A DNA stretch of 18,542 nt from a virus (taxonomy: Duplodnaviria > Heunggongvirae > Uroviricota > Caudoviricetes). Shown in pieces: positions 3,062-18,542 of this stretch (positions are counted from its first letter, which is position 1; every line of letters starts with the position of its first letter). The translations under genes and the position numbers were made by a program. Under the pieces are notes generated by a model. The model did no database searches. It was not told the origin of the DNA and was given only the letters and a program-made list of their open reading frames with translations. Location of the stretch: IMG/VR virus record IMGVR_UViG_2541047913_000008, positions 1 through 18,542 of that record. One strand, 5' to 3'.

Positions 3062-3090
3062 CAAATAAAAAAGCCTTCACTGCGGAAGGC
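3062..3090 (-). terminator. Minus-strand intrinsic terminator at the end of the 65-aa ORF
   Basis: On the minus strand: stem GCCTTC/GAAGGC (plus 3073-3078 and 3085-3090) followed by TTTTTTATT (plus A-tract 3064-3072). Overlaps the ORF stop codon. Confidence 0.6.
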
Positions 3091-3274: not shown

Positions 3275-3385
3275 GTCTTTTTCCGGTTAACGTGACACAC
3301 CAATAACTCTTGTCGAAAAAGCCAGCAAGCTGAAAGACCGGTATTCACCGCCGCCAGCGCGTTTACTGTACTGGACCGATTTCAG

Positions 3386-3412
3386 CCATAAAAAACCCGC
3401 TCGCGGCGGGTT
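3386..3412 (-). terminator. tR'-like intrinsic terminator about 60 nt downstream of Q
   Basis: On the minus strand: ACCCGC-cgcga-GCGGGT followed by TTTTTTAT (plus 3388-3412). Position matches the lambdoid late terminator that Q modifies RNA polymerase to read through. Confidence 0.6.
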
Positions 3413-3470
3413 TAAGCTGTGTGGCGTAGTAACCACTCTTAACATACTGACATACTTTTTGCGGACCGCG

Positions 3471-3863
3471 CTAATCATTTTTTACTTTTTTGGGCAGCCA
3501 GTCGTCCATCTCCAGCCTTACACCCAGCATCGACAGACATCCGTCAATAAATCCTTCAGCAATCTGCATCTCAATTCGTATTGCCTTTTCGCTCTTCTTT
3601 CTTGTTCTGGCAATCTGCCTTTTTGATATGCGCAGCAGATAATGAGCTACCAGCAGCGAATACTCGTCCGGTTTTTTCTTCTTCAGGCGCGTAAGGCAGT
3701 TTTCGATGATAAGGCCGTCATCATCGCTGCAGGCCGGGCGAGGTTTAGCGGTGGATGGTAAAAGGCCTTTAAATCCAGCAGCTATCGGAGAATAGTCCAC
3801 CCCGGCGTTACCACTTGCCGCCCATGCCCCCCAGCGTTCGAGAACCATCTGAATATCACGCAT
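3471..3863 (-). CDS. Q: Late-gene antiterminator Q (QuuD/phage-21-type family)
   Basis: Start MRDIQMVLERWGAWAA..AAGFKGL..RLKKK...RLEMD resembles the QuuD-type Q proteins of E. coli prophages as I recall them. ATG at 3863 has a GGAGA ribosome-binding site; the ORF-track start at 3878 is a TTG. Lies between the replication/DUF968 genes and the terminator. Confidence 0.7.
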   Translation of the reverse strand: MRDIQMVLERWGAWAASGNAGVDYSPIAAGFKGLLPSTAKPRPACSDDDGLIIENCLTRLKKKKPDEYSLLVAHYLLRISKRQIARTRKKSEKAIRIEMQIAEGFIDGCLSMLGVRLEMDDWLPKKVKND

Positions 3864-3880
3864 CAACTTTCTCCACAAAA

Positions 3881-4876: not shown

Positions 4877-4922
4877 CTCAGCGAACGGTATTGCATGAAC
4901 GCAGGAGAAAAAAATTCAGCCA

Positions 4923-5180
4923 TCACGCAGTAAACTCCTTCACCAGCGTTTCAAACTGGCTTACCTGGCCTTCCAGTTCCGCCACGCAATCCACCAGCTC
5001 ATCCACCGCCTTTTGTGTGCGGTGTTTTGCCTGCAGCAGATCACGAAGCGCCGGAGTAAGCTGCTTGCGGAGCGTATCCTTTGCCACGCTCATTTTTTCC
5101 ATCTGTTCAGCACAACGAAGCATCTCCTGCGCCTGCCGACGAAGTTGTTCCGGTGAAACAGTGGTTGTTCTGTTATTCAA
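4923..5180 (-). CDS. Hypothetical coiled-coil protein
   Basis: 85-aa ORF. TTG start overlaps the DnaB-like stop (TTGA). Heptad-like charged sequence. The real start could instead be an internal Met. Confidence 0.4.
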   Translation of the reverse strand: MNNRTTTVSPEQLRRQAQEMLRCAEQMEKMSVAKDTLRKQLTPALRDLLQAKHRTQKAVDELVDCVAELEGQVSQFETLVKEFTA

Positions 5181-6577
5181 AATAAACGCTCCGTTTTACT
5201 GCCCGACATGCGGTTATTGCTGTATCTGCGCGGATTGCTCGGCGTCATGGGTGAGGAAAGAACCTGAGCACTCTCCTGGTCCACAGGCAGAAAATGTCCG
5301 TTATGAAAACGCCGGTAAATGGTCCCGAGTGTGCCATTACGCTGTTTCGTAATGTTGATTTCTGCTATGCCTCTGGCCTGTGTATCCGGGTTATACACCT
5401 CATCCCTGTAAAGCATCAGAATGATGTCGGCATCAGCCTCTATTTCCCCGGAGTTTTTCAGGTCTGAGTTCATGGGACGTTTATTGGGTCTGGATTCCAC
5501 GCCTCGGGAGAGCTGGCTCAGAGCAATCAGCGGGAAACCGCCGGATTTTGCCAGGCTTTTAAGTCCCTTTGAGATTTCCCCCACCGCAAGGTCGTGACGC
5601 CCCGTGCTGCGGGTTTTAATCAGGCCGAGGTAATCGACCACCACCAGCGCCGTTTCCGGGTGTTTCATCCGGTGGTGCTTCGTGGTTGCACATATCTCAT
5701 CAATGGTCAGGTTTGCCTGGTCCACCATCCAGATATTACGCCCCGTCATTCGTCCCACGCCCTGCGAGAAACGCGCCCAGTCTTCATCTTCAAAACGGGC
5801 AACAGACTTAAGACGGGATACCGGCATTCCACCGGCAGCAGACACCATACGTTCACCAATCTGGATGTTCGCCATCTCCATGGTGAACAGAAGCACGCCA
5901 TGCCCCTGCTCAGTCACCTTGTCGATGATGTCCAGCGCAAGTTCGGTTTTCCCCATCGAAGGACGGGCGGCAATGAATACCAGGTCTCCGGGCTCCATAC
6001 CGCCCGTTTTTGCGTCCAGTTCATCAATACCGGTCATCAGCGCCCTGGATTTCTCCAGTCCCTGATTGCGGCATTCAACACGGTCGACCACTTCCGGAAG
6101 GACATCATCAATGTGAACCGGCTGAATGACGCCCTTTCCGGTCGACAGTGAGGCCATCATGTTCTGCACATCCTTCAGGGCATCCTCGGCTGCTTCACAG
6201 GTATACGCATCACGTAAATTCTGTAATGCTTCAGTCAGTGTTTTTTCTGCATCGCGCAGTGCGGCATTGCGCCGCAACGCTGCGACATAGTGCTCCAGTG
6301 AAGACTTCACCCAGGTTTTGCGTCCGGTGTCGGTAATCACCGGGGCAAGTTCCGGCATCTCATTGCACAGCAGTACGGGGTCAATGACGCCGGATATGCG
6401 AGCCTGTCTGCAAATCCCCGCGTAAATATCCCGGTACTGACGCACAAAAAATACATCCGCCGGAAGTGTGGCCAGAATATCCATCACTTCCGGATCGGCC
6501 CCACGCAGAAAAAACGCACCGATGACAGCGCCTTCCAGGTCATCGTTACGCCATGCCGGGGTGTTCTGGCTGGTCAT
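5177..6577 (-). CDS. DnaB-family replicative DNA helicase
   Basis: 466 aa. Walker A in FIAARPSMGKTELALD; DnaB-like N-terminal domain; ATG with GGAGG ribosome-binding site; 4-nt overlap with the upstream gene. Confidence 0.8.
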   Translation of the reverse strand: MTSQNTPAWRNDDLEGAVIGAFFLRGADPEVMDILATLPADVFFVRQYRDIYAGICRQARISGVIDPVLLCNEMPELAPVITDTGRKTWVKSSLEHYVAALRRNAALRDAEKTLTEALQNLRDAYTCEAAEDALKDVQNMMASLSTGKGVIQPVHIDDVLPEVVDRVECRNQGLEKSRALMTGIDELDAKTGGMEPGDLVFIAARPSMGKTELALDIIDKVTEQGHGVLLFTMEMANIQIGERMVSAAGGMPVSRLKSVARFEDEDWARFSQGVGRMTGRNIWMVDQANLTIDEICATTKHHRMKHPETALVVVDYLGLIKTRSTGRHDLAVGEISKGLKSLAKSGGFPLIALSQLSRGVESRPNKRPMNSDLKNSGEIEADADIILMLYRDEVYNPDTQARGIAEINITKQRNGTLGTIYRRFHNGHFLPVDQESAQVLSSPMTPSNPRRYSNNRMSGSKTERLF

Positions 6578-7473
6578 GCGGCAACACCTCCGATACGAGA
6601 ACGGTAGCTGGGCCAGTTAAACGACAACCAGTTGCGCCCGCCATCGGTGATCCTGTCGGCAATCCGGGGACTGATGAACGCCCACAATTCTTCCGGTGAA
6701 AGATTGCTGATCAAGATAGTTGGCAAAATACCCTCATACCGGGCATTGATAATTTCCTGCAAAATGGCCATTTCAGCCGCACTGCCAAACTGAACGCCGA
6801 CTTCGTCGACAATCAGCAAATCCAGTGACGCATAATGCTCAATGACGTCATCCGCTGTTTTTTCACTGTCATTCCGCCAGCAGTTTTTCACAGCCCGGGT
6901 AAGGCGCATCACGTCGGTGATCTCCACACTGGCCAGATAGTTACGGATGATGTGTTTTGCCATTGATACCGCCAGATGATTTTTCCCGGTACCGCAACTG
7001 CCGGTCATAACAAGACTGGTACCGTTCTCCAGCATATCTGGCCAGTTCTCCGCATAGCGGCGACAGGCCGCAAGATTTCTGGCTGCGTCAGGATTAACCT
7101 CCAGATAATTATCAAACTCGCAGTCCCGAAAACGCAGAGCAATTCCGGCGTTATCAGTCAGTTCTTCCGCCTTGAGGGACGACAGTTCCATGGTCAAATC
7201 ACTGGCCTCAGCGATCAAGCAGTCAGGGCAGCATGAAATTTTTTCTCTGTCCTCGCCATTACGATCGATCCACACCAGTATATGCGTACGATATTTACCG
7301 TGTTTTTCGCAATATCCGCGACCTTCACGCATCAGGCAGGAACGATAAGGCCATGGCTTTTCGCCCTTCTGAGCAAATGCAATCTCTGCCCGTAACTCAT
7401 CCATTTCTGCCCGTAAATCATCCATTCGCGCCTGTAGTCTTGTTTGTTTCTCACGTTGGTCAATCATCATCAT
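6574..7473 (-). CDS. DnaC/IstB-like AAA+ helicase loader with N-terminal Cys/His cluster
   Basis: Walker A LVMTGSCGTGKNHLAVS; Walker B-like LLIVDEVG. ATG at 7473 follows a GAGGTG ribosome-binding site; the track start at 7482 is a GTG. N-terminal CEKHGKYRTH...CCPDC. Confidence 0.75.
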   Translation of the reverse strand: MMMIDQREKQTRLQARMDDLRAEMDELRAEIAFAQKGEKPWPYRSCLMREGRGYCEKHGKYRTHILVWIDRNGEDREKISCCPDCLIAEASDLTMELSSLKAEELTDNAGIALRFRDCEFDNYLEVNPDAARNLAACRRYAENWPDMLENGTSLVMTGSCGTGKNHLAVSMAKHIIRNYLASVEITDVMRLTRAVKNCWRNDSEKTADDVIEHYASLDLLIVDEVGVQFGSAAEMAILQEIINARYEGILPTILISNLSPEELWAFISPRIADRITDGGRNWLSFNWPSYRSRIGGVAA

Positions 7474-7483
7474 CGCTGTCACC

Positions 7484-8476
7484 TCAGAATGTCAATTTGT
7501 TACTGGATTTACCAAATTTGTCAGACATGGCTCCCAGGCCAGCCAGGACATCGACCTGTCGCTGTCGCCCACCTCCGTGAGCGGCTGGCTGTTGCCAGTA
7601 ATCTTCGAAGTGACGATCGGGTCCAAAGAACGTCGCAGCCTGCTTCACGAACTGTGTGCCGGTATTTCCTGTAGCACGTACCCAGGCGGCATACCGCTTC
7701 ACGCCATCAAGCATGGTCTCCGGTTTTATTCCCTCCCTGATACGGGCTTTCCAGGCTTTGAAGGCTGCTGACTTGGAATTGCCACCAGCACGTTTGGGAT
7801 ATTCCTGCCAGGCCTGTTCAAATTCCGGTGAATATTCCTGTCTGGCAGAACGCGCTGGTGCAGACGCGTCAGCGGATGCGCCAATAGTGTTTTTAGTCTC
7901 CGTTGTAATCTCTGTAGTAATCTCTGTATTTGTATCAACATTCGGCGTATCCCCTGTTCCGTTACGACGTCGGGGGGTGTTCCGTTTTAACGTAATAGCT
8001 GTATCGCTGATTGCATTATTGCTGTTACTTTCTGGCGAAACAGAAGAAGGTGTGGTGATGGCCGCAATTGCCTGTGGGTTGATCCCGACAAACAAAATAT
8101 TGCTACATTTCACCCCATCGAGCATTTCCACCGTGCGTAAATCCAGAGTAATAAACCCGGCATCACGGAGACGCTTCAGCGCATCTGCGGTTTCCCTTTT
8201 CCCGAAACCAAACTGCTCAGCAAACGCCTGGTAGCTTCTTTGCAGTTTGTCGCCCTGAAAACGCTTGCGATATCCCAGCAACGCTCCGGTGTGCTCATCC
8301 CTGACCTCTGTCGGGCGGTACCAGTAAACGATCTCTGAAAGCAGAGCGATAGCCGTCGCATCCGGACGCCCACTGGGTAGTCGAATATATTTCCACCAGG
8401 TCGCAGGTGTAACATTGCCGGAAATATTAATTTGACCAATAGCCATAACTTCCGGTGTGGGGGCGTAACGGCTCAT
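7484..8476 (-). CDS. Replication initiator (O-like, replisome organiser)
   Basis: 330 aa, ATG with GGAAGGAGG ribosome-binding site, directly upstream of the DnaC-like and DnaB-like genes. Contains a low-complexity linker (TNTEITTEITTE) encoded by direct DNA repeats, as in the lambda O gene. Confidence 0.6.
   Translation of the reverse strand: MSRYAPTPEVMAIGQINISGNVTPATWWKYIRLPSGRPDATAIALLSEIVYWYRPTEVRDEHTGALLGYRKRFQGDKLQRSYQAFAEQFGFGKRETADALKRLRDAGFITLDLRTVEMLDGVKCSNILFVGINPQAIAAITTPSSVSPESNSNNAISDTAITLKRNTPRRRNGTGDTPNVDTNTEITTEITTETKNTIGASADASAPARSARQEYSPEFEQAWQEYPKRAGGNSKSAAFKAWKARIREGIKPETMLDGVKRYAAWVRATGNTGTQFVKQAATFFGPDRHFEDYWQQPAAHGGGRQRQVDVLAGLGAMSDKFGKSSNKLTF
7897..7986. repeat. Iteron-like direct repeats inside the O-like gene (candidate origin of replication)
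   Basis: Three ~12-bp units TCTCCGTTGTAA / TCTCTGTAGTAA / TCTCTGTATTTGTA (about 7897-7935), plus two copies of GTTCCGTT about 30 bp apart (about 7949-7986). Confidence 0.4.
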
Positions 8477-8772
8477 ACAACCTCCTTCCGCAGCATGAGA
8501 ATTGTGTAGCCACGCGCAGGTTGTAGTCTGGCTTTTGCATCAATAGTAAGCGTTGCAATTTTTCGGATATGAAGATAACCAGCTCTTTCCAGTGCCAGGG
8601 TTTCCCTGAATATCGCTTGCTTAGAACAACAGCAGAAATCAGCAAGCACCTGATGATCAATAACTCTCTCGCCTTCACCGTCTGAAGAACCCGACATCAA
8701 AACACGCAACATAATCAGGCGCTGAATCGGGTTATCGAAAGCACATCCGCACACAAACTGAAAACAGTTCAC
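8473..8772 (-). CDS. Hypothetical protein
   Basis: 99 aa. GTG start with GGGAGG ribosome-binding site; 4-nt overlap with the flanking genes. Confidence 0.4.
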   Translation of the reverse strand: MNCFQFVCGCAFDNPIQRLIMLRVLMSGSSDGEGERVIDHQVLADFCCCSKQAIFRETLALERAGYLHIRKIATLTIDAKARLQPARGYTILMLRKEVV

Positions 8773-8993
8773 GCCACACCTCCCAGACGCTTAAACATTT
8801 TTCCGGAGCAAAAGGCTATAAGCGGCATACTGATGCGGTAATTACGGCCCAGCGGTTCACAAATCACCTTCTGACATTCACGGTCAACCAGGCTGACACG
8901 TAGAACATGCCCTGCAGGCGTGGTGTACCACTGACCAGGACGAGGACAACGGAAAGTCTGATTGGTAAACCGTTTGAAAATATTCCGGATCAT
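8769..8993 (-). CDS. Hypothetical protein
   Basis: 74 aa. ATG overlaps the stop of the Rha-like gene (ATGA). Confidence 0.4.
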   Translation of the reverse strand: MIRNIFKRFTNQTFRCPRPGQWYTTPAGHVLRVSLVDRECQKVICEPLGRNYRISMPLIAFCSGKMFKRLGGVA

Positions 8994-9535
8994 TTGCGCC
9001 CCCTTACCTCTGAAGGGTTCAGCGACAAATTTATGAGACTGGCCAGTAGCGCCGCGTCGTTGATGCGGTCATACAGACTTACAGCCAGCGGGGATTCGGC
9101 TTTTGCCAACATGGGATAAAGCTGCTGCAGCCAGACCTGATGAATTGATGAAATGTAGGAATAGAGAACGCTGGCGTTATGTGCAACGTCGCTCAGTACA
9201 GAGGGATTTGAAAGCTGTTTCTCCATCTGGTTAAAGGCATTGATGTATGCCTCTTTGAACTGGGCAGCACGTTTACCCGTGAAACCCATAGCAAGAAACG
9301 CAAAGCCGTCGCGGGTTATTTGATAGCAAGGTAGTTTGCGGCCTGTGCAATCGGTGTAATCACTCACCGAAAAATTGCGGGAAGTGAATGATGCAGAGCA
9401 TTCAAGCGTGCGGATCTTTTTCAGTACATCGTCATGACGTTTGGAGAAGAAGTTGGCAACAGCCAGGGATGAAGTAACAGCCTGACCATCAACGATGGCA
9501 ATTTCAGGTTGAGTGAGGGTTGGGATCGTAGCCAT
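8990..9535 (-). CDS. Rha-family phage regulatory protein
   Basis: Motif VTSSLAVANFFSKRHDDVLKKIRTL matches the Rha N-terminal signature. ATG at 9535 has a GGAGG ribosome-binding site. The ORF-track start at 9835 adds 100 residues rich in Ala/Gly/Ser/Pro that do not look like protein, so I prefer 9535. Confidence 0.6.
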   Translation of the reverse strand: MATIPTLTQPEIAIVDGQAVTSSLAVANFFSKRHDDVLKKIRTLECSASFTSRNFSVSDYTDCTGRKLPCYQITRDGFAFLAMGFTGKRAAQFKEAYINAFNQMEKQLSNPSVLSDVAHNASVLYSYISSIHQVWLQQLYPMLAKAESPLAVSLYDRINDAALLASLINLSLNPSEVRGRK

Positions 9536-9699
9536 GATGGCAGCCTCCGTTGACTGTGGAAAACTTCCACCACCGGAGCTGCGAAACTCACTGGTGGCAG
9601 ACTGAACAGGGTTCGCAGTACCGGCGTCAACGGAGACCGGCGAGCCTTTCGGCTCCCCTGCCCAGCCCACCATAATTCTGGCGTGCGTGAGCGCGGACG

Positions 9700-9721
9700 A
9701 TAAAAAAGACGCTGGCGCGTC
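9700..9721 (-). terminator. Minus-strand intrinsic-terminator-like hairpin between the cro-proximal genes and the replication genes
   Basis: On the minus strand: GACGC-gcca-GCGTC followed by TTTTTTAT (plus 9701-9721). Short 5-bp stem. Confidence 0.35.
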
Positions 9722-9918
9722 ATATATCGCCGTTGACAATTCCGGGCTGCGACCCCCGGCACCCGCTTTATAAGGTGCCTGAGCAGTGTAACGTCCCGGA
9801 ATTGCAGAATCAATATTTGGTCTTGAAATGATCATATAGCTGCTGATATCTTTAGAACTGTTCTTGGATGTTTCGGAGCCGTTTTATGCGAAACAGCTCC
9901 CCGTTATTGATGTTGAGT

Positions 9919-9944
9919 GAGCCGGGTTACTCCCGGCTTTTTTT
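9919..9944 (+). terminator. Plus-oriented intrinsic terminator abutting the stop of the 235-aa gene (oop-like arrangement)
   Basis: Stem GAGCCGGG/CCCGGCTT region (9919-9937) with 5-nt loop, followed by TTTTTTT (9938-9944). Antisense to the early-right operon, as the lambda oop terminator is. Confidence 0.5.
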
Positions 9945-10651
9945 CATCGCTGCCAACCAATAACCTGAAATAACCCCATTTTCGGGTGATACCAGCGAGT
10001 CCCTCGCGGTTCTGCTTCCTCCATAACCCGATAAAAAGCAGCCATAAACGGTTCCACAGCAACAATTGCGCGACGTGACAACAATCCGTCCGGCGTCATG
10101 AACTCATGTGTGTCTGTAGGAATTTGATAGGCGTTCACCAGATTGCGGCATTTATCATCTGACAAACCGGTTTTTGCTTTCAGTTGGCGATATCCGGCAT
10201 AGCCCTCACGAATAGTGCCCTTTTTAATTTGCTCGACTGTTTCAGCAACGTGGCTGACTTTTTCTTCCACCTGAGTGATCCGTTTCTGTTGGCGAACGGC
10301 TTCAAGAGCCATCGCGGCAACCATTTCGATTTCGCTCATTGGCTTACGGATCTGTTCTTCCAGTTCGCGCCAGCGATCTACCAGGCGAGCTGTGAATTCA
10401 GGACAGAGCTGTGCGACGACAATGATGCTGTCGCGCTTACCTCGTTCACCTTCGAATACATACGCGCTAGAAAATCGGCGAGGCCCAAGTGATTGTTTAT
10501 TCTCAATTTCCACAGTCTGTGGAAATTGGATGATTCCCTTTTTAGCCAGTGTTTCAATAGTTCTCTTAACACTATCTGGTCGGCTTCCCACCAGCTCTGC
10601 GATCTCAACGCTGGTCATGGATGCTTTGCCGTTAAAAATTGCGGTGTTCAT
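9944..10651 (-). CDS. Phage regulatory protein in the cII position, Rha/antirepressor-like N-terminus
   Basis: 235 aa. ATG overlaps the cro-like stop (ATGA); AGGAG ribosome-binding site. N-terminal segment SVEIAELVGSRPDSVKRTIETLAKKGII looks like a helix-turn-helix. Family assignment tentative. Confidence 0.5.
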   Translation of the reverse strand: MNTAIFNGKASMTSVEIAELVGSRPDSVKRTIETLAKKGIIQFPQTVEIENKQSLGPRRFSSAYVFEGERGKRDSIIVVAQLCPEFTARLVDRWRELEEQIRKPMSEIEMVAAMALEAVRQQKRITQVEEKVSHVAETVEQIKKGTIREGYAGYRQLKAKTGLSDDKCRNLVNAYQIPTDTHEFMTPDGLLSRRAIVAVEPFMAAFYRVMEEAEPRGTRWYHPKMGLFQVIGWQR

Positions 10652-10938
10652 TGTTTATCTCCTGCGTGTATTCCATCCGCTCTGTGTGGTGAACTTGGAT
10701 TTAGGCTTTTGCGTAACAAGTTAGGAATTCCATCTTCAGGGTGAGGATAAAGATCTGGCCTTAAGCCATGAGGCGTAACCTTCCATGCAACTACTTCACA
10801 TACTCGTAAAACGAAACGAGCAGGAATTGTGCTTTTTGAAAACCACTGATTCACCGCTTGCGGCGTCACACCAAGATTTCGCGCTATGGCATTTTGCGCA
10901 ATTAATGCACGAAGTTTGTCGTAATCATTTCCTTCCAT
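10648..10938 (-). CDS. cro: Cro-like (YdaS-type) helix-turn-helix regulator
   Basis: 96 aa, divergent from cI. Helix-turn-helix IARNLGVTPQAVNQWFS. Weak ribosome-binding site. Confidence 0.6.
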   Translation of the reverse strand: MEGNDYDKLRALIAQNAIARNLGVTPQAVNQWFSKSTIPARFVLRVCEVVAWKVTPHGLRPDLYPHPEDGIPNLLRKSLNPSSPHRADGIHAGDKQ

Positions 10939-11071
10939 AACAAAACACCAATATTAACTTTATAAATCAAGAATACATCAAGTTTAAATTAACATGCAAG
11001 TTACAAAAGGATCGAATACACTAAAATCAAGTAAAGATTTATCCTTGTAAAGAAACCCACAGGATTTGGTC
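10939..11071. promoter_or_regulatory. Divergent cro/cI control region (right-operator-like promoters and operators)
   Basis: 133-bp AT-rich spacer between divergent cro-like and cI genes. Repeated motifs AAATCAAG / CATCAAG / AAATCAAG and CTTGTAAAG. Confidence 0.55.
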
Positions 11072-11761
11072 ATGAAGAACGTCAAAAACACGGAAAATCG
11101 AATAGCCGCGATGCTGAAAGCAAAAGGATGGACTCAGGCTCAACTGGCCCGCAAGTTAGGTGTGAGTGCGCAATCAGTGCAGTACTGGACAACAGGAAAA
11201 ACATTTCCACGGAGTGATAAGCTCGCGCATTTATCAGAGATTAGCGGTTATCCACAATCCTGGTTCTTAGGTGAAGACTCCTCACCAACCTTTTCCTCGC
11301 AAGAGAAACACCAGACAAGAACAGATAGCGTCGTATTTAATGTCCTTGATGTTGAGTTTAGTTGCGGTGATGGAACTCATGTCCGTGGTGACTTGATAGA
11401 TGTAGTGCGCTCAATAGAACTTGATCCTGAATATGCCCGACGTCTTGTTGGAAATCGGGCATTCAAAAATATAGAAATAGGTAACGCCAGAGGAGACAGT
11501 ATGGCTCCCACAATCTCACCTGGCGACCTTCTTTTTCTTGATAAGACAGTAACTTATTTTGATGGCGATGGTATTTATGCATTTTGTTTTGATGGAGAAT
11601 GCTACGTGAAAAGGCTTCAAAAAATTGGAAGCAAAATCATGGTGTTATCTGATAACCCCAATTATCAACCATGGAGCATCGAAAAAGAGGGGTTAGCTCT
11701 GCTTTATATCCAGTCTAAAGTGATCTCATCAGTACCATTCAACATAAACAGATTTGGTTAG
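11072..11761 (+). CDS. cI: cI-type prophage repressor (N-terminal helix-turn-helix plus C-terminal S24 LexA-like autopeptidase)
   Basis: Helix-turn-helix WTQAQLARKLGVSAQSVQYW; S24 motifs GDSMAPTISPGDLLFLD and YVKRL. ATG at 11072 with AGGA ribosome-binding site; the track start at 11066 is a TTG. Confidence 0.85.
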   Translation: MKNVKNTENRIAAMLKAKGWTQAQLARKLGVSAQSVQYWTTGKTFPRSDKLAHLSEISGYPQSWFLGEDSSPTFSSQEKHQTRTDSVVFNVLDVEFSCGDGTHVRGDLIDVVRSIELDPEYARRLVGNRAFKNIEIGNARGDSMAPTISPGDLLFLDKTVTYFDGDGIYAFCFDGECYVKRLQKIGSKIMVLSDNPNYQPWSIEKEGLALLYIQSKVISSVPFNINRFG

Positions 11762-11772
11762 TCTTTGATTTT

Positions 11773-11797
11773 AACGGGCTTTGCCCGTTTTTTTCTG
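11773..11797 (+). terminator. Intrinsic terminator after cI
   Basis: AACGGGC-tttg-GCCCGTT followed by TTTTTTT. Confidence 0.65.
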
Positions 11798-11824
11798 CCT
11801 GAAATATACGATATCAATTTTTTC

Positions 11825-11853
11825 TTGACAGCCTGTTTCCCAAAACATAATAT
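11825..11853 (+). promoter_or_regulatory. Near-consensus sigma70 promoter (candidate left promoter or cargo promoter)
   Basis: -35 TTGACA (11825-11830), 17-bp spacer, -10 TAATAT (11848-11853). Palindrome ATCAAttataacTTGAT lies just downstream (11860-11876) and shares ATCAA/CTTGAT with the cro/cI control region. Confidence 0.55.
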
Positions 11854-11906
11854 CGCACCATCAATTATAACTTGATTTGATTCAATTTAAAATTGTTGGC
11901 GGATAT

Positions 11907-12455
11907 ATGAAGACACTAAAAGCAACTCCAGAAACAACTAATTTTATCAACTGCGGCTGTGTTACGCTTAAGGGCTTAGAACTTGATTCCTTTGCATTAA
12001 ATATTGCAAATTTGCTAAGTGCTGTACGCACATTCCATCTTCTGGATTGTGCTCGCTCAAAGGAACTGGGCATTGAGGTAATGGAATTTATCCATGAATA
12101 TGCTCTATCTGCTGCTTCTCCTGCACAGCAAAAACAATCCTTCCCTGAAAGCTGGCTGGTTAACCTTCGCACCCAACGCGAAGCCTGCGGCTTAACAACC
12201 GCCGAACTCGCCAGGCTGCTCGATCTCGATGAAGAAATTATCATCCAGTGGGAGAGCGGAGAGTACGAACCAACCATCAGCATGCTTATCCCACTGGCAA
12301 ATATTCTTGGCTGCGATCCGATGTGCCTGTTAACTGGTGAGGTTACTCCTCCGGAGAAACCAAAAAGTGAGGAGCAGCAACACCATGACGCATCTCAACA
12401 AGTTTGCCCCTTATCTCGCGAAGCTCTTCTGCGGAAGAACCAATACCAATGGTGA
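11907..12455 (+). CDS. XRE-family helix-turn-helix protein with unrecognised ~95-aa N-terminal domain
   Basis: ATG at 11907 (the track start at 11877 is a TTG). C-terminal helix-turn-helix LTTAELARLLDLDEEIIIQWESGEYEPTISMLIPLANILGCDPMCLL. First gene after the promoter. Confidence 0.55.
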   Translation: MKTLKATPETTNFINCGCVTLKGLELDSFALNIANLLSAVRTFHLLDCARSKELGIEVMEFIHEYALSAASPAQQKQSFPESWLVNLRTQREACGLTTAELARLLDLDEEIIIQWESGEYEPTISMLIPLANILGCDPMCLLTGEVTPPEKPKSEEQQHHDASQQVCPLSREALLRKNQYQW

Positions 12456-12583
12456 CATAATCGCCGCTTCGCCCTTCAAGGTACATGCGAACATTTTTAT
12501 CAATCATTGCGGAAACAGTCTCAATATGAAAACACTTCTGAGACTCGCTATATAGCAGAACATATAAGTCAGCTGAGGAAGCC

Positions 12584-12949
12584 ATGAAAAAGTTCGAAAA
12601 CATAACTGTTCTCCATGTTGATGACTTTGATTATACAAACCCGGAACTTCTCCCGGAGGTTGTAAAGGCAATAGATGTTGCCGATATAGTGATTAGAGAA
12701 AAGAGAATTGTCAAAAACAGGCTCGCATGCACTTCAGGAGCAATGACAGAAACAACCTCACAGCAAGATAATTACGAAGGCATTTGTCTGGAGCCTGATT
12801 CATTTGCGGTAAATGTTTATCATTTATTGCATGCAACACAGGTATTACATATGTCCAGTAATCACGAAACGAAAACACTCGGCAGCGAAATTCTGAGTTT
12901 TGCATGTGAGTATACAAAAGCTGCTGCCGAAAAAGAATTAGCGCAATAA
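12584..12949 (+). CDS. Hypothetical protein, no family recognised
   Basis: 121-aa ORF. ATG with GAGGAA ribosome-binding site 5 nt upstream. Confidence 0.5.
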   Translation: MKKFENITVLHVDDFDYTNPELLPEVVKAIDVADIVIREKRIVKNRLACTSGAMTETTSQQDNYEGICLEPDSFAVNVYHLLHATQVLHMSSNHETKTLGSEILSFACEYTKAAAEKELAQ

Positions 12950-13027
12950 CAACAAATATGCCCTGAACGTTTATTGCGGTTTTATCGCCGGGGATTGTTA
13001 CAACCTTAATCCACAGGAGGCTTTATT

Positions 13028-13141
13028 GTGACTTTTATAAAGAATATGGCATCACACAAGACCGCCTGCCTTATTGCACAATACGGTGAAAATTACATGC
13101 ATATTGCCTGCTTATTTCTGCGTAAAGCATACGGGAGATAA
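13028..13141 (+). CDS. Small upstream ORF (37 aa) with perfect Shine-Dalgarno sequence; possible leader peptide
   Basis: AGGAGG 7 nt upstream of GTG at 13028; stop 2 nt before the ATG of the next gene. Not in the ORF track because it is short. Confidence 0.3.
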   Translation: MTFIKNMASHKTACLIAQYGENYMHIACLFLRKAYGR

Positions 13142-13143
13142 TA

Positions 13144-13344
13144 ATGCATCAGAAAACAGCAGAACACGAACAAACCAGAGTATTGCTGACCATCAAAAAC
13201 GGGAAAGTAATATTCATTCGCCATGTTCATGACGATGAACTTGTAGGAAATCTTTCAACATTCCTGTTTATTGCAGAAAAGGCAGGATATGACGTTATTG
13301 CACCAGCAGATGAAGATGAAGATGAAGATGAAGATGAGGAATAA
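13144..13344 (+). CDS. Small protein with poly-acidic C-terminal tail
   Basis: 66 aa, GGAGA ribosome-binding site. C-terminus ADEDEDEDEDEE is encoded by a GATGAA tandem repeat. Confidence 0.5.
   Translation: MHQKTAEHEQTRVLLTIKNGKVIFIRHVHDDELVGNLSTFLFIAEKAGYDVIAPADEDEDEDEDEE
13309..13338 (+). repeat. In-frame hexanucleotide tandem repeat (GATGAA x4 plus GATGAG)
   Basis: Read directly: gatgaa gatgaa gatgaa gatgaa gatgag at the 3' end of the 66-aa gene. Confidence 0.9.
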
Positions 13345-13349
13345 ATATC

Positions 13350-13931
13350 ATGCAATACGATGAATTCCAGGCTGAAGCAACAGCCAATGGTATACGAACT
13401 GGCAGTATGACGATTGATTATCACGACGCCATACGTCGTCTGGATGCCGGAGAATTCGATACTCCTAATGTGCGAGGTTTACGTATCCTTCAGTGTCTGG
13501 CGCAAGCCGACGAAGCAGGATTACTGGGTAAACTTCCGGTTGAGATGAAGGTTGCTCAGTGGCGATGGTTGTATGTGACGACATTCATCAACGAAGAAGA
13601 AGACAAGAACGGCACAATTGATATCCTGAATGAACACGGAACAACTGAACACGCCGTGGTATATAACGGGATGTATGGGTTTATGACGATATATCCCGGC
13701 CCCATTCGATTTGCCTTACAACAGTATATTGAATGGAATTTAATTCAAAAATACGGCGAAGCTGAAGGAATGGGAAGAGCGCTGTTTCTTTATCAGAAAA
13801 TGCTCACTACTTCCCCTGATAAAGGTTTCATTCTTTCAGATATGGGTCGAGAAGGGCTTGAAATCCTTCTGGATGAAATTATTAACGAAATGAATACTCA
13901 TGGCATGCAATCCGAAACAGATATTAAGTAA
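13350..13931 (+). CDS. Hypothetical protein, translationally coupled to the acidic-tail gene
   Basis: 193 aa. ATG 6 nt after the upstream stop, with GAGGAA as ribosome-binding site. No family recognised. Confidence 0.5.
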   Translation: MQYDEFQAEATANGIRTGSMTIDYHDAIRRLDAGEFDTPNVRGLRILQCLAQADEAGLLGKLPVEMKVAQWRWLYVTTFINEEEDKNGTIDILNEHGTTEHAVVYNGMYGFMTIYPGPIRFALQQYIEWNLIQKYGEAEGMGRALFLYQKMLTTSPDKGFILSDMGREGLEILLDEIINEMNTHGMQSETDIK

Positions 13932-13941
13932 AAGGGACCAC

Positions 13942-14163
13942 ATGACCGTTATCGAGCATATCCAAGAAAATCCAGATTGCAGTAGAGAAGATATATCCCT
14001 CGCATTTGGAAGAAGCGCAACTTCTATCAGTAATGAATTATCACGGTTATTGTGGAATGGGTTAATAGTACGAACTGGAGAAAAAAACAAAATGATTCTG
14101 TACTGCGTAAACAATCTGCCGTTTGGATACAGCAATCCCCTAAGTGTTATGTTCAACCAGTGA
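13942..14163 (+). CDS. Small winged-helix-like protein (hypothetical)
   Basis: 73 aa from the internal ATG at 13942 (the upstream part of the track ORF overlaps the previous gene). Helix-turn-helix-like EDISLAFGRSATSISNELSRLLWNGLIV. Confidence 0.4.
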   Translation: MTVIEHIQENPDCSREDISLAFGRSATSISNELSRLLWNGLIVRTGEKNKMILYCVNNLPFGYSNPLSVMFNQ

Positions 14164-14206
14164 TAGTGATGTTCCGACAGGAGAGAGCAGAGAAAGGGGA
14201 ATCAGC

Positions 14207-14866
14207 ATGAAATTTTCCAAATTTTCTGAGTTGGTGAATCGTATTTTGTCCAACAACCACAGCCATCGTCGCGATATGGATGTAACGATCGTTGTTCATT
14301 CGCCTGGCAGCATTGGTTCAACACCCTCAGTTGAAGTTCAGTCAATTCACGCTGGTTTTGATTGGGATTCCGGGAAAGTGCTGATTTTCCCAGCACAGCC
14401 ACTGACCACTCTAACACCAGAACAGATTACTGATATTACTGATAGTGTGCGCAAAGGTCAGTCCTGGCACGCATATCAGGAATACAAGAAGCATAAAGAG
14501 CAGTTGGAAAAATTATCGATTGAACTTGATGCCGCAAAACAGCGCATTGCAGAGCTGGAGGGTAATTTCACGGCGCTGGCAGCGGAGAATGCGGGGCTAA
14601 AGGCGATATGTGATGACCGTCGCAGGTTCATCATGAATGGGGTGCAGATGGGTTATATCAAGGTGCCAGCAGCGGAAACAGATCCAGACCTTGAGACAAT
14701 TCGCATTGCTATATCACCACAAAAGCCCATTCCAGCCACCGATGCTTTCCTGGCTGAAGTACGGGCGCAGGGCGTGGAGATGTTTGCGGAGTGTGCATAC
14801 ACGCTTGAACATCATGATCACGCAGTAGCCTTCGCCGCTGAGCTTCGCAAAGGAGGCAACCAGTGA
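14207..14866 (+). CDS. Ead/Ea22-like early protein with central coiled coil
   Basis: ATG at 14207 with AAAGGGGA ribosome-binding site. Coiled coil EQLEKLSIELDAAKQRIAELEGNFTALAAENAGLKA. Family call is from memory of E. coli prophage annotations. Confidence 0.45.
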   Translation: MKFSKFSELVNRILSNNHSHRRDMDVTIVVHSPGSIGSTPSVEVQSIHAGFDWDSGKVLIFPAQPLTTLTPEQITDITDSVRKGQSWHAYQEYKKHKEQLEKLSIELDAAKQRIAELEGNFTALAAENAGLKAICDDRRRFIMNGVQMGYIKVPAAETDPDLETIRIAISPQKPIPATDAFLAEVRAQGVEMFAECAYTLEHHDHAVAFAAELRKGGNQ

Positions 14867-15348
14867 GCGAAATTAATTACCAGGCACTGCGTGAGGTGGC
14901 GGAACGTGCAATTCCAGCAATGGAACGCCTGTTAATGTTGCCAGCTGATGATGACTTGTTAAGTGAACAGGAACTTAAAGATTACGGTGTGGATATTGAT
15001 GCGCTCAACGCCTTCAAATTTCTGACCGGACCAGAAACCGTGCTGGCACTGCTGGATGAACGGGAAAGAAACCTGCAATACATCAAAAGCCGCGATCAGG
15101 AGAACGAGGATATTGCGCTAACGGTAGGGAAGCTGCGCGTTGAGCTTGAAGCAGAAAAACAGCGGGCAAAAGTTCTATTTATGGAAAATGCTCGGCTTAA
15201 GTCAGGCATAGCCGGTCTGATACACCTCGGTATTCGATATGCAGATGTTGAGGTCATGAAAATTGCTGGAGATGCCCAGCTTTCTACCCCATGCACTGAC
15301 AGCATCATAAACAGCATTGCAACAGGCATTCGCATCAAAGGAGAGTGA
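14863..15348 (+). CDS. Hypothetical early protein (Ea22-like N-terminus, coiled coil)
   Basis: 161 aa. GTG start with AGGAGG ribosome-binding site, overlapping the upstream stop. Confidence 0.45.
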   Translation: MSEINYQALREVAERAIPAMERLLMLPADDDLLSEQELKDYGVDIDALNAFKFLTGPETVLALLDERERNLQYIKSRDQENEDIALTVGKLRVELEAEKQRAKVLFMENARLKSGIAGLIHLGIRYADVEVMKIAGDAQLSTPCTDSIINSIATGIRIKGE

Positions 15349-15349
15349 T

Positions 15350-15613
15350 ATGGCAACTTTGACAAAAAAAGAACAAGCATGGTTGAGCGAATTACAGGAC
15401 GTTCTTGATCGCTGTCCATCACCGAAAAAAATTGGTTTTTACACCATTGGCGATAAAAGCATTTACCTGTATGACCTGCGCCGCATGGATGAAATCATGG
15501 AGGCTCTTGATAATCGTTCGTCGATGGATTGGTGTGTTGCTGTTCATGATATGAATGCAGGGTTTGATGAAAAGATTTTGTTCCCCTCATCAGTTGAAAG
15601 CACTGCGGGTTAA
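15350..15613 (+). CDS. Hypothetical protein
   Basis: 88 aa from ATG at 15350 with AAAGGAGAG ribosome-binding site. Confidence 0.45.
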   Translation: MATLTKKEQAWLSELQDVLDRCPSPKKIGFYTIGDKSIYLYDLRRMDEIMEALDNRSSMDWCVAVHDMNAGFDEKILFPSSVESTAG

Positions 15614-15623
15614 GGAGTAACAC

Positions 15624-16451
15624 ATGACCACTATAACCAAAGAGCGACTGCTGACAATCAAGCAGTGGCGCGAAACATACGGACCGGGTAGCAACGTTGT
15701 GCTTCCAGCAGAAGAAGCGGAAGAGCTGGCACGAATTGCACTGGCATCACTGGAACGCGAACTGATTCGCCACGAGCATGCCAAATGGTCTGACTCCACA
15801 TTTGGCTGCGTTGGCCCCATTGGTCCACTGAAACACCTCTCAAAAGAGGCTCTGGAAGCCGCAGCCGAACCAGACGATCTCAGCGAGTGGGCTGATATGC
15901 ATTTCCTGTTGTGGGATGCACAGCGCCGTTCTGGCATCAGCGATGCTGAAATTACCGCTGCTATGGAAGATAAATTGAAGATCAACATGGAGCGCCAGTG
16001 GCCTGAACCAAAAGATGGTGAGCCTCGCTTGCACATTAAAGAACCCGGCAACTCTCCGGTAATTCCGGATGGTTTATCCACGGTACGAGCTGAGGCTTAT
16101 CAGGTTGTAGGAGTTATGGCAGATGCGCTTGGTGTATTCGGTGATGCAGCAGTACAGAAAGTTCTGGATAACCTGTCACAGCAAAAACTTGTTCACAGAG
16201 ATGTGCTGCCGTTCTCGCTTCCGGTAACTCCGGATGGTTGGATAAGCTGTAGTGAGCGAATGCCGAACGATAAACAGTATGTTTGGTGTTGGGGTAAGTC
16301 TTACGGCTGGACTGAGTGCGATACCTTCGAAGGGTATTACGATTGTTCGAGAAACAAATGGTGGGCAGTTACTGACAATGGGGAAGAACCGGCATCGAAA
16401 GTAACCCACTGGATGCCGCTGCCAGAACCGCCGCAGGAGGTGAATCAATGA
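15624..16451 (+). CDS. Two-domain phage protein: MazG-like or DUF550-like nucleotide pyrophosphohydrolase N-domain plus DUF551 C-domain
   Basis: 275 aa, AAGGAG ribosome-binding site. N-terminal acidic motif EEAEELARIALASLERE; C-terminal WISCSERMPNDKQYVWCW...KWWAV...VTHWMPLPEPP resembles DUF551. Confidence 0.55.
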   Translation: MTTITKERLLTIKQWRETYGPGSNVVLPAEEAEELARIALASLERELIRHEHAKWSDSTFGCVGPIGPLKHLSKEALEAAAEPDDLSEWADMHFLLWDAQRRSGISDAEITAAMEDKLKINMERQWPEPKDGEPRLHIKEPGNSPVIPDGLSTVRAEAYQVVGVMADALGVFGDAAVQKVLDNLSQQKLVHRDVLPFSLPVTPDGWISCSERMPNDKQYVWCWGKSYGWTECDTFEGYYDCSRNKWWAVTDNGEEPASKVTHWMPLPEPPQEVNQ

Positions 16452-16531
16452 GCTGGCCTGATGCAATCGTAACTCTGGGGATGGTATTCGCAGTAGCGTT
16501 TGTTGTGTACTCGATTTGTCGATGGGGATAA
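16448..16531 (+). CDS. 27-aa hydrophobic peptide (MSWPDAIVTLGMVFAVAFVVYSICRWG)
   Basis: ATG overlaps the stop of the upstream gene (ATGA); one predicted transmembrane helix. Not in the ORF track because it is short. Confidence 0.35.
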   Translation: MSWPDAIVTLGMVFAVAFVVYSICRWG

Positions 16532-16535
16532 CCAC

Positions 16536-16778
16536 ATGTTCGCTTTGATTCAACGCGGGCAGATATACACCGATAGTGCTGGCTACCCGATAAAAATTGT
16601 TCGCTGCATAAACAACACTGTTTTGTACAGAAGAATGGATGGGCGAACACAGTCAGTAAAAATAAACGATTTCAATGAACTGTTTGAACGGATTGATCAC
16701 CAGGAATACCGACAAATTCTGGCAGAAACAGAGCAGGAAGCTCATCTGAAAAAATTACGGGCCATGAAAAGGAAGTAA
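16536..16778 (+). CDS. Hypothetical protein
   Basis: 80 aa from ATG at 16536. Confidence 0.4.
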   Translation: MFALIQRGQIYTDSAGYPIKIVRCINNTVLYRRMDGRTQSVKINDFNELFERIDHQEYRQILAETEQEAHLKKLRAMKRK

Positions 16779-16781
16779 ACA

Positions 16782-16928
16782 ATGAATAAAGCATTTGAAC
16801 AATGGGTCCACCAGCGTTACGGCAATCGCTATGACCTGACACGAGATGTTGACGGTTTCTACTGTCGTGAAATTGTGAAACGAATGTTTGAAGTGTGGTG
16901 CCACTGCCGTGGGCTGAGTGTTGTGTGA
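16782..16928 (+). CDS. Hypothetical small protein (48 aa)
   Basis: ATG with AGGAAG ribosome-binding site. Translation MNKAFEQWVHQRYGNRYDLTRDVDGFYCREIVKRMFEVWCHCRGLSVV. Not in the ORF track. Confidence 0.35.
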   Translation: MNKAFEQWVHQRYGNRYDLTRDVDGFYCREIVKRMFEVWCHCRGLSVV

Positions 16929-16936
16929 GGTAATGC

Positions 16937-17173
16937 ATGGGCAATGTGATTCAACTGGCTCCCAATGAATGGGTTTGTGAAAGCGTTCTAATCGCAATTA
17001 CCGGGCTCAAACCAGGCACAATTCTTCGGGCCCGGAAAGAATGCTGGATGGTTGGAAGAGAGTATATTCACGTATCACCAGACGGTAATCCAAAGCCTTC
17101 CAGTGAATGTATGTATAACAGAAAAGCAATAGATGCCTGGGTCGCTTCAATGAAAAACAAACAACCTGGGTGA
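16937..17173 (+). CDS. xis: Excisionase-like protein
   Basis: 78 aa, immediately upstream of int. Winged-helix-like NEWVCESVLIAITGLKPGTILRARKE...GREYIHV resembles the lambda Xis pattern. Confidence 0.55.
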   Translation: MGNVIQLAPNEWVCESVLIAITGLKPGTILRARKECWMVGREYIHVSPDGNPKPSSECMYNRKAIDAWVASMKNKQPG

Positions 17174-17228
17174 TTTAATGCCATGAAGTATGTAAGCTCG
17201 TATCGCTCTTGGGCGTCTGGAGGTATCA

Positions 17229-18542
17229 ATGGATAAAGTCAAATATCCAACAGGCGTCGAAAACCACGGCGGCACATTACGCATCTGGTTTAATTTTAAA
17301 GGTAAACGTGTCAGGGAAAATCTTGGTGTCCCTGACACTGCCAAGAACAGGAAGATCGCCGGGGAACTGCGGACATCGGTATGTTTTGCCATCCGCACAG
17401 GAAGCTTTGATTATGCTGCACAGTTCCCTGACTCCCCCAACCTTCAGGCTTTTGGGGTAAGTAAAAAAGAAATTACGGTGAAGGAACTTGAAGAAAAGTG
17501 GCTGGATCTGAAACGAATGGAAATCTCTGCAAATGCATTCAATCGCTATGAATCCGTTGCAAGAACGATGGTTTCGAAAATTGGAGGCAGTAGACTGGTG
17601 TCATCGGTAACCAAAGAGGAATTGCTGTATATCAGGAAAGATTTGCTGACCGGGTATCAGAATTCAACGAAAAACAAAGCAGCAGCAAAAGGACGGAGCG
17701 TCGTTACTGTAAATTATTACATGACGACAATCGCTGGAATGTTTCAGTTTGCTGCAGATCACGGTTACTTAGAAGCAAATCCCTTCCAGGGAATTAAGCC
17801 TCTTAAAAGAGCCAGGGCAGAGCCAGATCCGCTAACTCGTGACGAATTTATTCGCCTGATAGATGCTTGCCGACATCAGCAGACGAAAAACCTGTGGTCA
17901 TTGGCTGTGTACACAGGAATGCGTCACGGTGAACTGGTCTCCCTGGCCTGGGAAGATATCGATCTGAAGGCAGGAACAATTACCATCAGGCGCAATTATA
18001 CGAAACTTGGTGAGTTCACTCTACCGAAAACTGAAGCAAGCACAAACAGGGTTGTGCACCTTATCCAGCCCGCTATCAGTGTCCTGAAAAATCAGGCTGA
18101 AATGACAAGACTGGGTAAGCAGTACAACATCAAGGTGCAACTACGTGAATATGGACGTTCAGTGAACCATGAATGTACTTTCGTGTTTAACCCTCAAGTG
18201 GTTAGAAAAAGCGAACAGGTAGGTTTTGTCTACAAAGTCGATTCTGTAGGTGACTCATGGGAAACAGCCATTAAGCGTGCAGGGATCAGGCATCGAAAGG
18301 CATACCAGTCACGACACACTTATGCGTGCTGGTCATTATCTGCCGGAGCAAACCCAAGCTTCATTGCCAGCCAGATGGGCCATGCAAGTGCCCAGATGGT
18401 ATTCAATGTATACGGAGCATGGATGACTGACAGCAATGCAGAACAGATCGCAATGCTGAATCAGAAGCTGACAGATTATGTCCCAATGATGCCCCATAGT
18501 CACCAAAGTGACACCAGAGGCTTATTAAAATCAGTAAGTTAA
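17229..18542 (+). CDS. int: Tyrosine site-specific integrase (phage integrase family)
   Basis: 437 aa, GGAGG ribosome-binding site. Catalytic-domain motifs (RHGEL...HRKAYQSRHTYACW...GHASAQMVFNVYGAW). Stop codon is the last three bases of the window. Confidence 0.9.
   Translation: MDKVKYPTGVENHGGTLRIWFNFKGKRVRENLGVPDTAKNRKIAGELRTSVCFAIRTGSFDYAAQFPDSPNLQAFGVSKKEITVKELEEKWLDLKRMEISANAFNRYESVARTMVSKIGGSRLVSSVTKEELLYIRKDLLTGYQNSTKNKAAAKGRSVVTVNYYMTTIAGMFQFAADHGYLEANPFQGIKPLKRARAEPDPLTRDEFIRLIDACRHQQTKNLWSLAVYTGMRHGELVSLAWEDIDLKAGTITIRRNYTKLGEFTLPKTEASTNRVVHLIQPAISVLKNQAEMTRLGKQYNIKVQLREYGRSVNHECTFVFNPQVVRKSEQVGFVYKVDSVGDSWETAIKRAGIRHRKAYQSRHTYACWSLSAGANPSFIASQMGHASAQMVFNVYGAWMTDSNAEQIAMLNQKLTDYVPMMPHSHQSDTRGLLKSVS

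Follow-up and report, generated by a model that had tools for sequence, protein, structure and literature searches.

We examined an 18,542-nucleotide (nt) stretch of a Caudoviricetes virus (IMG/VR record IMGVR_UViG_2541047913_000008, positions 1 to 18,542; this whole stretch is henceforth referred to as the window) and analyzed a small open reading frame (ORF) located at 16448..16531 on the plus strand. The small ORF consists of 27 codons and a TAA stop, and its product is MSWPDAIVTLGMVFAVAFVVYSICRWG. Its start, stop and frame are kept in related phages and prophages, and its substitutions carry the mark of purifying selection. We consider it probable, at roughly 60%, that the small ORF is a genuine translated phage accessory gene from a scarcely ever annotated family and that its product is a membrane helix acting by lateral packing.

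Under this reading, ribosomes would arrive by coupling to the upstream Ea-type gene through an ATGA overlap and also through a strong Shine-Dalgarno (SD) sequence of the small ORF itself. In the window, the small ORF would hand ribosomes on to a DUF4222 gene, its stop lying 4 nt before the start of that gene. The 27-residue product would be inserted in the inner membrane as a single helix (about residues 6 to 24) between the interfacial tryptophans W3 and W26, and would act there by tight lateral helix-helix packing. The packing partner may be the peptide itself, in an oligomer, or a host inner-membrane protein. The function would be an accessory one, co-expressed with the Ea-type genes, and not an essential step of phage growth.

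Conservation and translation signals of the small ORF

The ATG of the small ORF (16448-16450) is the first start codon downstream of the in-frame upstream stop. It overlaps the TGA (16449-16451) of a 275-amino-acid (aa) EaA-type gene (15624..16451, +), and the resulting ATGA start/stop overlap (16448..16451, +) is a translational coupling junction. The initial annotation had pointed to this overlap and to a 27-codon ORF with a hydrophobic helix, and both the coordinates and the translation were borne out. The junction is conserved in relatives. Stop and start overlap (as ATGA, as TGATG or by 14 nt) in the majority of placeable instances, and they do so behind at least five different, unrelated upstream gene ends, which read ...PQEVNQ, ...SVEDILR, ...IGVEVK, ...IEQKVNQ and ...KKGMNQ before the stop. 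Divergent members of the family likewise overlap or abut neighbouring genes.

The SD of the small ORF, AGGAGGTGA (16435..16443, +), lies 4 nt before the ATG, within the final codons of the upstream gene (QEVNQ and stop). The duplex of AGGAGGTGA with the anti-SD has an energy of -11.6 kcal/mol, which is in the top 1% of window positions and equals the strongest of the 15 gene starts scored in that part of the window. An SD also precedes the ORF in 41 distinct upstream contexts, where its energy averages -10.2 kcal/mol. The RNA at the small ORF is less structured than shuffled controls (z = +1.6). There is no promoter-like site near the small ORF (the closest minus-strand one is at 15657) and none on the opposite strand within ~600 nt. 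We detected no inverted repeats at the small ORF, and no Rfam family, including the antisense RNA families, matched at 16.3-16.7 kilobases (kb) of the window. An explanation of the segment as an RNA was rejected because of the lack of an Rfam match, of excess structure and of inverted repeats.

Short ORFs are common in this region: 39 ORFs of at least 20 aa overlap the 2 kb around the small ORF, and a 27-codon ORF by itself is therefore within chance. Judging from the sequences compared, it is conservation and not length that raises the small ORF above chance. We tested conservation in three ways, at DUF4222-anchored loci, with a degenerate DNA pattern in IMG/VR and with a looser pattern in metagenomes. 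The DUF4222-anchored set (86 sequences) was chosen via the downstream protein and was thus blind to the small ORF. The homologous segment was present in 56 of these 86 sequences, and the start, stop and frame were intact in all 56. A scan of genome contigs with DUF4222 yielded two loci. The IMG/VR pattern retrieved ~60 distinct nucleotide alleles, all with 27 codons and the identical stop. The ATG is at the same position in these alleles (GTG in two), except for one allele with a 1-nt deletion past the ATG. Across the IMG/VR and phage loci, frame, start and stop are kept in 176 out of 179 instances. The metagenome pattern fixed neither the start nor the stop, and 115 out of 120 instances were intact, the other five being the deletion allele (four) and an ATG-to-ACG change (one). 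The frame conservation in related prophages that had been proposed as a check on the ORF held in each of these sets.

The substitution pattern is that of a coding sequence. The frame of the small ORF is open in 61 of 61 alleles, and the other two sense frames are open in one and three of the 61. Entropy is highest at the third codon position (0.67, versus 0.32 at the first and 0.24 at the second). The pooled pairwise ratio of nonsynonymous to synonymous differences (pN/pS) is 0.34 in the frame of the small ORF, versus 1.04 and 1.88 in the other sense frames. When computed by context, the ratio is 0.42 next to DUF4222, 0.28 next to hok and 0.21 in other contexts. Restricting the calculation to the 14 central codons that are free of the search pattern gave 0.49 overall and 0.32-0.55 by context. 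The single open frame, the codon-periodic substitutions and a ratio below one indicate that the small ORF is under purifying selection.

Two kinds of disrupted allele were observed. The recurrent null allele has a 1-nt deletion directly past the start (ATGACTGGCC in place of ATGACCTGGCC). In the single allele with an ATG-to-ACG change, the change also abolishes the TGA of the upstream gene. These alleles are found at locus L089 (~1499-1584), at L156, L199, L262, L304, L314 and L316, and at L319. In phage vB_EcoS-689R5, the shifted frame of the deletion allele is annotated as a 36-aa hypothetical protein.

The predicted membrane protein, its family and its distribution

A single transmembrane helix is predicted for the product, from about residue 6 to residue 24, with W3 on one side and W26 on the other. 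The spacing of these tryptophans, 23 residues, fits a helix that spans the membrane. Over residues 7-24 the mean Kyte-Doolittle hydropathy is 2.46, and none of the other ORFs among the 91 ATG-initiated ones of 25-60 aa (both strands of the window) has an 18-residue stretch that reaches 2.4. The single transmembrane helix named in the initial annotation is thus supported by hydrophobicity. For the best 19-mer, additive Hessa-scale sums range from -1.1 to +1.6 kcal/mol across alleles. The helix contains no charged or strongly polar residues.

We derived the signature W-P-[ED]-A-[FIL]-x3-G-x-A-x-[AG]-x-A-x3-[YF]-S-x-C-[RK]-W-G for the family. The conserved positions are W3, P4, E/D5, A6, F7, G11, A13, A15, A17, Y21, S22, C24, R25, W26 and G27. 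G11 (98%), A15 (90%) and A17 (92%) are conserved even though the first search pattern left them unconstrained. The small residues fall on two faces of the helix, G11/A15 and A13/A17, and these stripes suggest close helix-helix packing. As regards attachment to a larger membrane protein, the one hint is the helix packing suggested by the conserved G-x-A-x-A-x-A stripe. We regard a bitopic inner-membrane protein as the most likely form of the product, and the conserved R25 near the C-terminus, together with the acidic residue 5, would favour an N-out/C-in orientation.

Variants of the protein were observed in some contigs. An Ea22-like upstream gene may lack its stop and run in frame into the peptide (...PPLESNKMSWPDAF...), as in the metagenome contigs L221 (3001-3432) and L220 (156-776), and such an in-frame fusion predicts a tail-anchored Ea22-like protein. 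One fusion (P0020) joins an Ea22-like protein to the peptide in 143 aa and was found in at least six contigs from five samples. A second (P0028) has 206 aa, and both occur in prophages that are syntenic with the window. Four other proteins (P0022, P0024, P0026 and P0030) have in-frame hexanucleotide expansions in the helix (AMAMAMAM or AVAVAV) that add 4-8 residues, which suggests that the coding sequence contains a GCGATG-type repeat prone to slippage.

A profile search against 1.84 billion representative proteins returned 39 matches with E-values up to 0.001. The listed matches that we inspected were WPEAF-type peptides or fusions; the long proteins P0037, P0042 and P0047 were left out. The divergent members (MEISWPEAIMWIGIAFAAALAIYSIMRWGD, MNITNWPEAFTYIGCAFAIAIIFYSMFRWG, MLAQAMGWPDAFALVGGAFATAFIIYAVCKYA, MTWPEAFVIVGVVLGFAWIVHSVCKW and others) are encoded in tight arrays of small co-directional genes on phage-like contigs with guanine-plus-cytosine (GC) contents of 27%, 30%, 36%, 55% and 60%. 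W-P-E/D-A, G11, A13/15/17 and Y-S are kept in them, as is a basic residue ahead of the C-terminus. Their codons track the local GC content, and each of those examined (30-60% GC) has a good SD. That the signature is kept at 27-60% GC while the DNA changes is, in our view, the strongest single argument for conservation of the protein and not of the DNA. The metagenome pattern scan was dominated by Escherichia coli alleles and added one divergent member, at 27% GC.

Two contigs with divergent members were compared to phage records using blastn. For L213, a metagenome contig with 30% GC, there was no match. For L214, the comparison gave only weak similarity in one neighbouring gene, to EBPR, Caulobacter and Pseudomonas phages. 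On L213 (1811-4311), a gene for a PP2C-like phosphatase and a Ser/Thr-kinase-like gene (weak Pfam matches) precede the member by a few genes, in surroundings that resemble the early region of a phage.

Several alleles and divergent members were searched against Pfam, NCBIfam, PHROGs and PADLOC, and no match above threshold was obtained. The only sub-threshold matches were to phrog_4612, KdpF, DUF883_C and PTR2. A sequence search of the Protein Data Bank (PDB) gave no match, and the peptide strings were not found in the full-text literature searched. The family is new and is without a name, a family model or a publication. Its kind is known, namely the small single-pass membrane proteins of phages.

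We compared the product to known small membrane proteins. It shares with AcrZ, MgtS, KdpF, CydX and PmrR, a class of short E. coli inner-membrane proteins that span the membrane once and bind to larger partners there, a length below 50 aa, a single hydrophobic transmembrane helix, very short tails, interfacial aromatic residues and a small-residue face suited to packing. There is no sequence relation to this class, the only match being KdpF at an E-value of 0.24, far below the cutoff. Moreover, members of the class are chromosomal and stress-regulated, whereas the small ORF is phage-borne and operon-coupled. The ElaB/YqjD/YgaM tail anchors (DUF883_C) likewise have a hydrophobic C-terminal helix that is rich in glycine and alanine, which recalls the in-frame fusions of some lineages. 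However, the match to DUF883_C is 13-14 bits versus a Pfam cutoff of 27, and the product of the small ORF is normally a free-standing 27-aa protein.

The segment is present in 1107 out of 5426 complete E. coli genomes (~20%), at 1397 places and up to five times per genome. Of the 1397 places, 150 are on plasmids. Around 170 non-mobilisable plasmids of 90-100 kb carry the small gene in E. coli, E. albertii, E. fergusonii and Salmonella, and the single such plasmid that we examined is IncY, i.e., P1-like. In the Shiga toxin (Stx) 2 phage 933W (L086, AF125520.1), an unannotated copy is located at 1501-1584, between L0139 and sokW/hokW. Prophage Sp5 of E. coli Sakai (NC_002695.2, 1305785-1305868, minus strand) has an unannotated copy between ECs_1246 and mokC. 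The 933W and Sp5 copies read MTWPEAFANVGTVMAVVLVVYSICRWR, overlap the stop of L0139 or ECs_1246 and lie ~150 nt upstream of the sokW/mokW/hokW type I locus. The small gene is also found in YYZ-2008, BP-4795 and many Stx1 and Stx2 phages.

A strictly virulent Vequintavirinae phage, Av-05 (L088, NC_025830.1, 842-1584), has the same peptide gene coupled behind an Ea-type gene, which shows that the cassette has been exchanged between temperate and virulent phages. In one assembly, the small gene is in a nin-type region, between DUF551 and hok. The downstream neighbour varies and may be DUF4222 (+4 nt), hok/sok (mok, about +153 nt) or another gene. Because the loci and the neighbours vary, we describe the segment (SD and ORF) as a small mobile cassette at the 3' end of Ea-type genes and not as an early-left feature per se.

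The initial annotation had called the ORF easy to miss, and we found it unannotated in 933W, YYZ-2008, Sakai Sp5 and RefSeq records of the Prokaryotic Genome Annotation Pipeline (PGAP). PGAP calls the small gene only with an N-terminal extension to 40 aa (WP_255625547.1). A few “hypothetical protein” entries of 27-45 aa belong to the family, including WP_255625547.1, ASL58468.1 and ETI78407.1, and they were called only through an N-terminal extension or by a permissive gene caller. A homologue search with a 40-aa translation that includes out-of-frame upstream residues retrieved five “hypothetical protein” entries only. The family has been overlooked because 27 codons is below the usual size limit of gene callers.

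Weighing the explanations

Several observations weigh against a translated accessory gene whose product packs in the membrane. The remaining 30 of the 86 DUF4222-anchored sequences, which are phiP27-like, have a different upstream gene and do not have the small ORF. The first DNA pattern fixed several conserved residues, which inflated the apparent conservation at positions 3-6 and 21-26. A pN/pS of 0.3-0.5 reflects moderate, not strong, constraint, and the alleles are phylogenetically non-independent. The recurrent null allele and the ATG-to-ACG allele imply that the gene is dispensable in some lineages. The in-frame Ea22-peptide fusions, found in at least six contigs, would force an N-in orientation, contrary to the N-out/C-in orientation favoured above. 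Helix packing is proposed from a sequence motif, and translation of the small ORF is likewise predicted from its sequence. The Sp5 copy is absent from the list of novel genes in a ribosome profiling (Ribo-seq) study of E. coli Sakai (PMC5597208). That study used uninduced cultures (PMC5597208), and because of this the absence is weak evidence. The supplements of PMC5597208 contain neither the peptide sequence nor nearby coordinates.

The explanations that deny the peptide a role of its own face the same comparative data. Short ORFs are abundant here, the segment is at a mosaic junction of variable modules, and in hok contexts its 3' end would be near the expected position of the hok promoter. 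In principle, such a picture could come from a chance ORF in a conserved element that does not code for protein, be it an RNA, part of a promoter or a recombination linker joining modules. Nevertheless, we consider this extremely improbable and largely refuted by the substitution pattern: substitutions are codon-periodic and a single frame is open, protein-level conservation extends across very different GC contents, and there is no Rfam match, excess RNA structure or inverted repeat. The antisense ORF at 16445-16537 is also unconserved in other contexts.

The ORF may instead be a translational relay from the upstream gene to DUF4222 in which the peptide is irrelevant. The overlap with the upstream stop, a GGGGA element in the last codons of the ORF (7 nt before the DUF4222 ATG) and the 4-nt spacing, which is invariant in every DUF4222 context, would all fit a relay. 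However, the constraint on the peptide is the same or stronger where nothing is coupled downstream (pN/pS 0.28 in hok contexts, with ~153 nt to mok, and 0.21 in others), and a pure relay is unlikely for this reason. The amino-acid signature also survives at 27-60% GC while the DNA changes, and the phiP27-like phages have a DUF4222 gene with its own SD and no small ORF. We judge a pure relay to be highly improbable. We also think it very unlikely that the segment is a C-terminal membrane anchor module for upstream Ea-type proteins, attached via fusion or frameshifting. The fusions of 143 aa (at least six contigs, five samples) and 206 aa and the sub-threshold resemblance to the glycine-zipper tail anchor DUF883_C (E-value 0.04-0.19) would speak for such a module. 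However, at nearly all loci the upstream gene ends in a stop and is in a different frame from the peptide, and the junction AAT CAA TGA does not appear to be a slippery heptamer. The own ATG and the strong SD are kept everywhere, the fused forms included. With ~8 residues outside the helix, the peptide has too few for non-covalent recruitment of a separate protein.

The initial annotation had linked the peptide to lambda Kil and to type I toxins. By analogy with lambda Kil or with Hok, TisB and Ibs, the peptide could be a host-killing, division-blocking or membrane-depolarising toxin, which we regard as unlikely. It is a very small, very hydrophobic single-helix peptide (27 aa; mean of residues 7-24, 2.46), comparable in size and hydrophobicity to the type I toxins (Hok/Gef, TisB, Ibs, Ldr, ShoB and DinQ). 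Many tiny hydrophobic single-helix peptides are toxic on over-production. The two small-residue faces of the helix would also fit a homo-oligomeric pore, toxicity would be tolerable in operons expected to be silent in the lysogen, and a virulent phage carries the gene as well. In Stx phages, the small ORF is often ~150 nt upstream of hok/sok; the neighbouring hok/sok is a separate module with its own ORFs and is absent from the window.

The other computable features do not support the link, which remains an analogy. Type I toxins differ in that no antisense RNA, sequestered ribosome-binding site or promoter of its own was found for the small ORF. No antisense RNA family matched at the ORF or elsewhere in 16.3-16.7 kb, no opposite-strand promoter-like site was found within ~600 nt, and the ORF at 16445-16537 is unconserved elsewhere, although a novel antisense RNA is conceivable. 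In place of an own promoter and a structured leader, we found a co-directional array, unstructured RNA (z = +1.6) and the ATGA overlap. With its strong, unsequestered SD and its coupling to an ordinary gene, the small ORF is the reverse of a gene under type I toxin control. There was no match to threshold in Pfam, NCBIfam or PADLOC and none to a toxin family; in particular, Hok/Gef (PF01848) gave no Pfam match for 13 alleles or the divergent members. The helix has no charged or strongly polar residue, and the gene is carried on ~170 stably maintained IncY phage-plasmids and in up to five copies per genome.

The comparison with Kil is also poor. Lambda Kil is a soluble FtsZ inhibitor and not a membrane peptide. 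Rac KilR and DicB are soluble like Kil, and the three, at 47-73 aa, are effectors of FtsZ or MinC. Like the small ORF product, they are small, non-essential products of a phage early or accessory operon. They differ in that there is no PHROG, Pfam or NCBIfam similarity, and in that the small ORF is in an Ea-type array by the excisionase and integrase genes (xis-int) and not in the gam-kil-cIII position.

The accessory-gene reading can be taken further. The family WPEAF...G-x-A-x-A-x-A...YS-x-CRWG may be a hitherto unrecognised, phylogenetically broad phage membrane effector that uses its two small-residue faces to form an oligomer or clamps onto a conserved host inner-membrane protein. We put this forward tentatively and would not expect it to hold. 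If true, the effector would serve host takeover, exclusion or anti-defence, and its range would span lambdoid prophages including Stx phages, P1-like phage-plasmids, a virulent myovirus and contigs of 27-60% GC. Small phage membrane proteins are a known but poorly charted class, and this member is unusually well backed by comparison. It is one more small phage gene and not a new type of system. It is present in ~20% of complete E. coli genomes, including those with medically important Stx2 phages such as 933W and Sakai Sp5, and it is a concrete example of what gene callers that skip very short ORFs hide. Were a membrane partner or an effect found, the Ea-type accessory region of lambdoid phages, which is poorly understood, would gain a function.

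Neighbouring features of the window

The 275-aa protein encoded upstream of the small ORF matches PF04447 (DUF550; E-value 3e-41) and PF04448 (DUF551; E-value 3e-18). DUF550 is a dATP/dGTP pyrophosphohydrolase domain. DUF550 and DUF551 are fused in this one protein (15624-16451) and are encoded by separate genes (EaA and DUF551) in relatives. Downstream, an 80-aa DUF4222 gene (16536..16778, +; PF13973, E-value 6.7e-16) starts 4 nt past the stop of the small ORF. Its weak SD-like sequence, the GGGGA element at 16524..16528 (+; -5.5 kcal/mol), lies 7 nt before the ATG at 16536 and overlaps the final codons of the small ORF, W26 and G27. It is followed by a 48-aa conserved hypothetical gene (16782..16928, +; phrog_3871, E-value 3.5e-35), which is also hypothetical in related phages. 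The 48-aa product contains cysteine, and the gene lies 3 nt past the DUF4222 stop, between DUF4222 and xis, as a further small gene in the same coupled chain as the small ORF. The co-directional array ends with an excisionase gene (16937..17173, +; phrog_539, PF06806/DUF1233). A tyrosine integrase gene (17229..18542, +; PF12167, PF00589) occupies the end of the window.

Upstream of the array, the immunity region is recognisable by a gene for a cI-like repressor with helix-turn-helix (HTH) and peptidase S24 domains (11066..11761, +). Behind this gene come a terminator-like hairpin (11773-11789) and then a promoter-like site (11825-11853), which precedes the co-directional array. The small ORF had been assigned to an early-left operon. 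The gene order agrees with this, running from the cI-like repressor through the terminator-like and promoter-like sites to a co-directional array that extends to xis-int, and on these grounds we infer that the small ORF is in a pL-type (early-left) transcription unit downstream of the immunity region. The assignment does not extend to the family. Homologues outside such operons include one in a nin-region array, one beside hok/sok at the right end of 933W, those of the IncY phage-plasmids and that of a virulent phage.

Three antisense shadow ORFs, at 16176-16553, 16369-16650 and 16445-16537 on the minus strand (125, 93 and 30 aa), span the end of DUF551 and the small ORF. The 30-aa ORF is shortened or missing in other alleles. 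The three appear to be side effects of the coding sequence on the sense strand.

Rfam matches above the gathering score were obtained elsewhere in the window, all on the minus strand: a C4 antisense RNA (9590-9677, 78.8 bits), an isrK Hfq-binding RNA (9702-9778, 58.7 bits) and the small RNA (sRNA) STnc100 (2717-2922, 143 bits). These three matches are located on the replication and late-regulation side of the prophage, and the C4/isrK pair suggests an antirepressor control region of the P1/P7 or Gifsy type.

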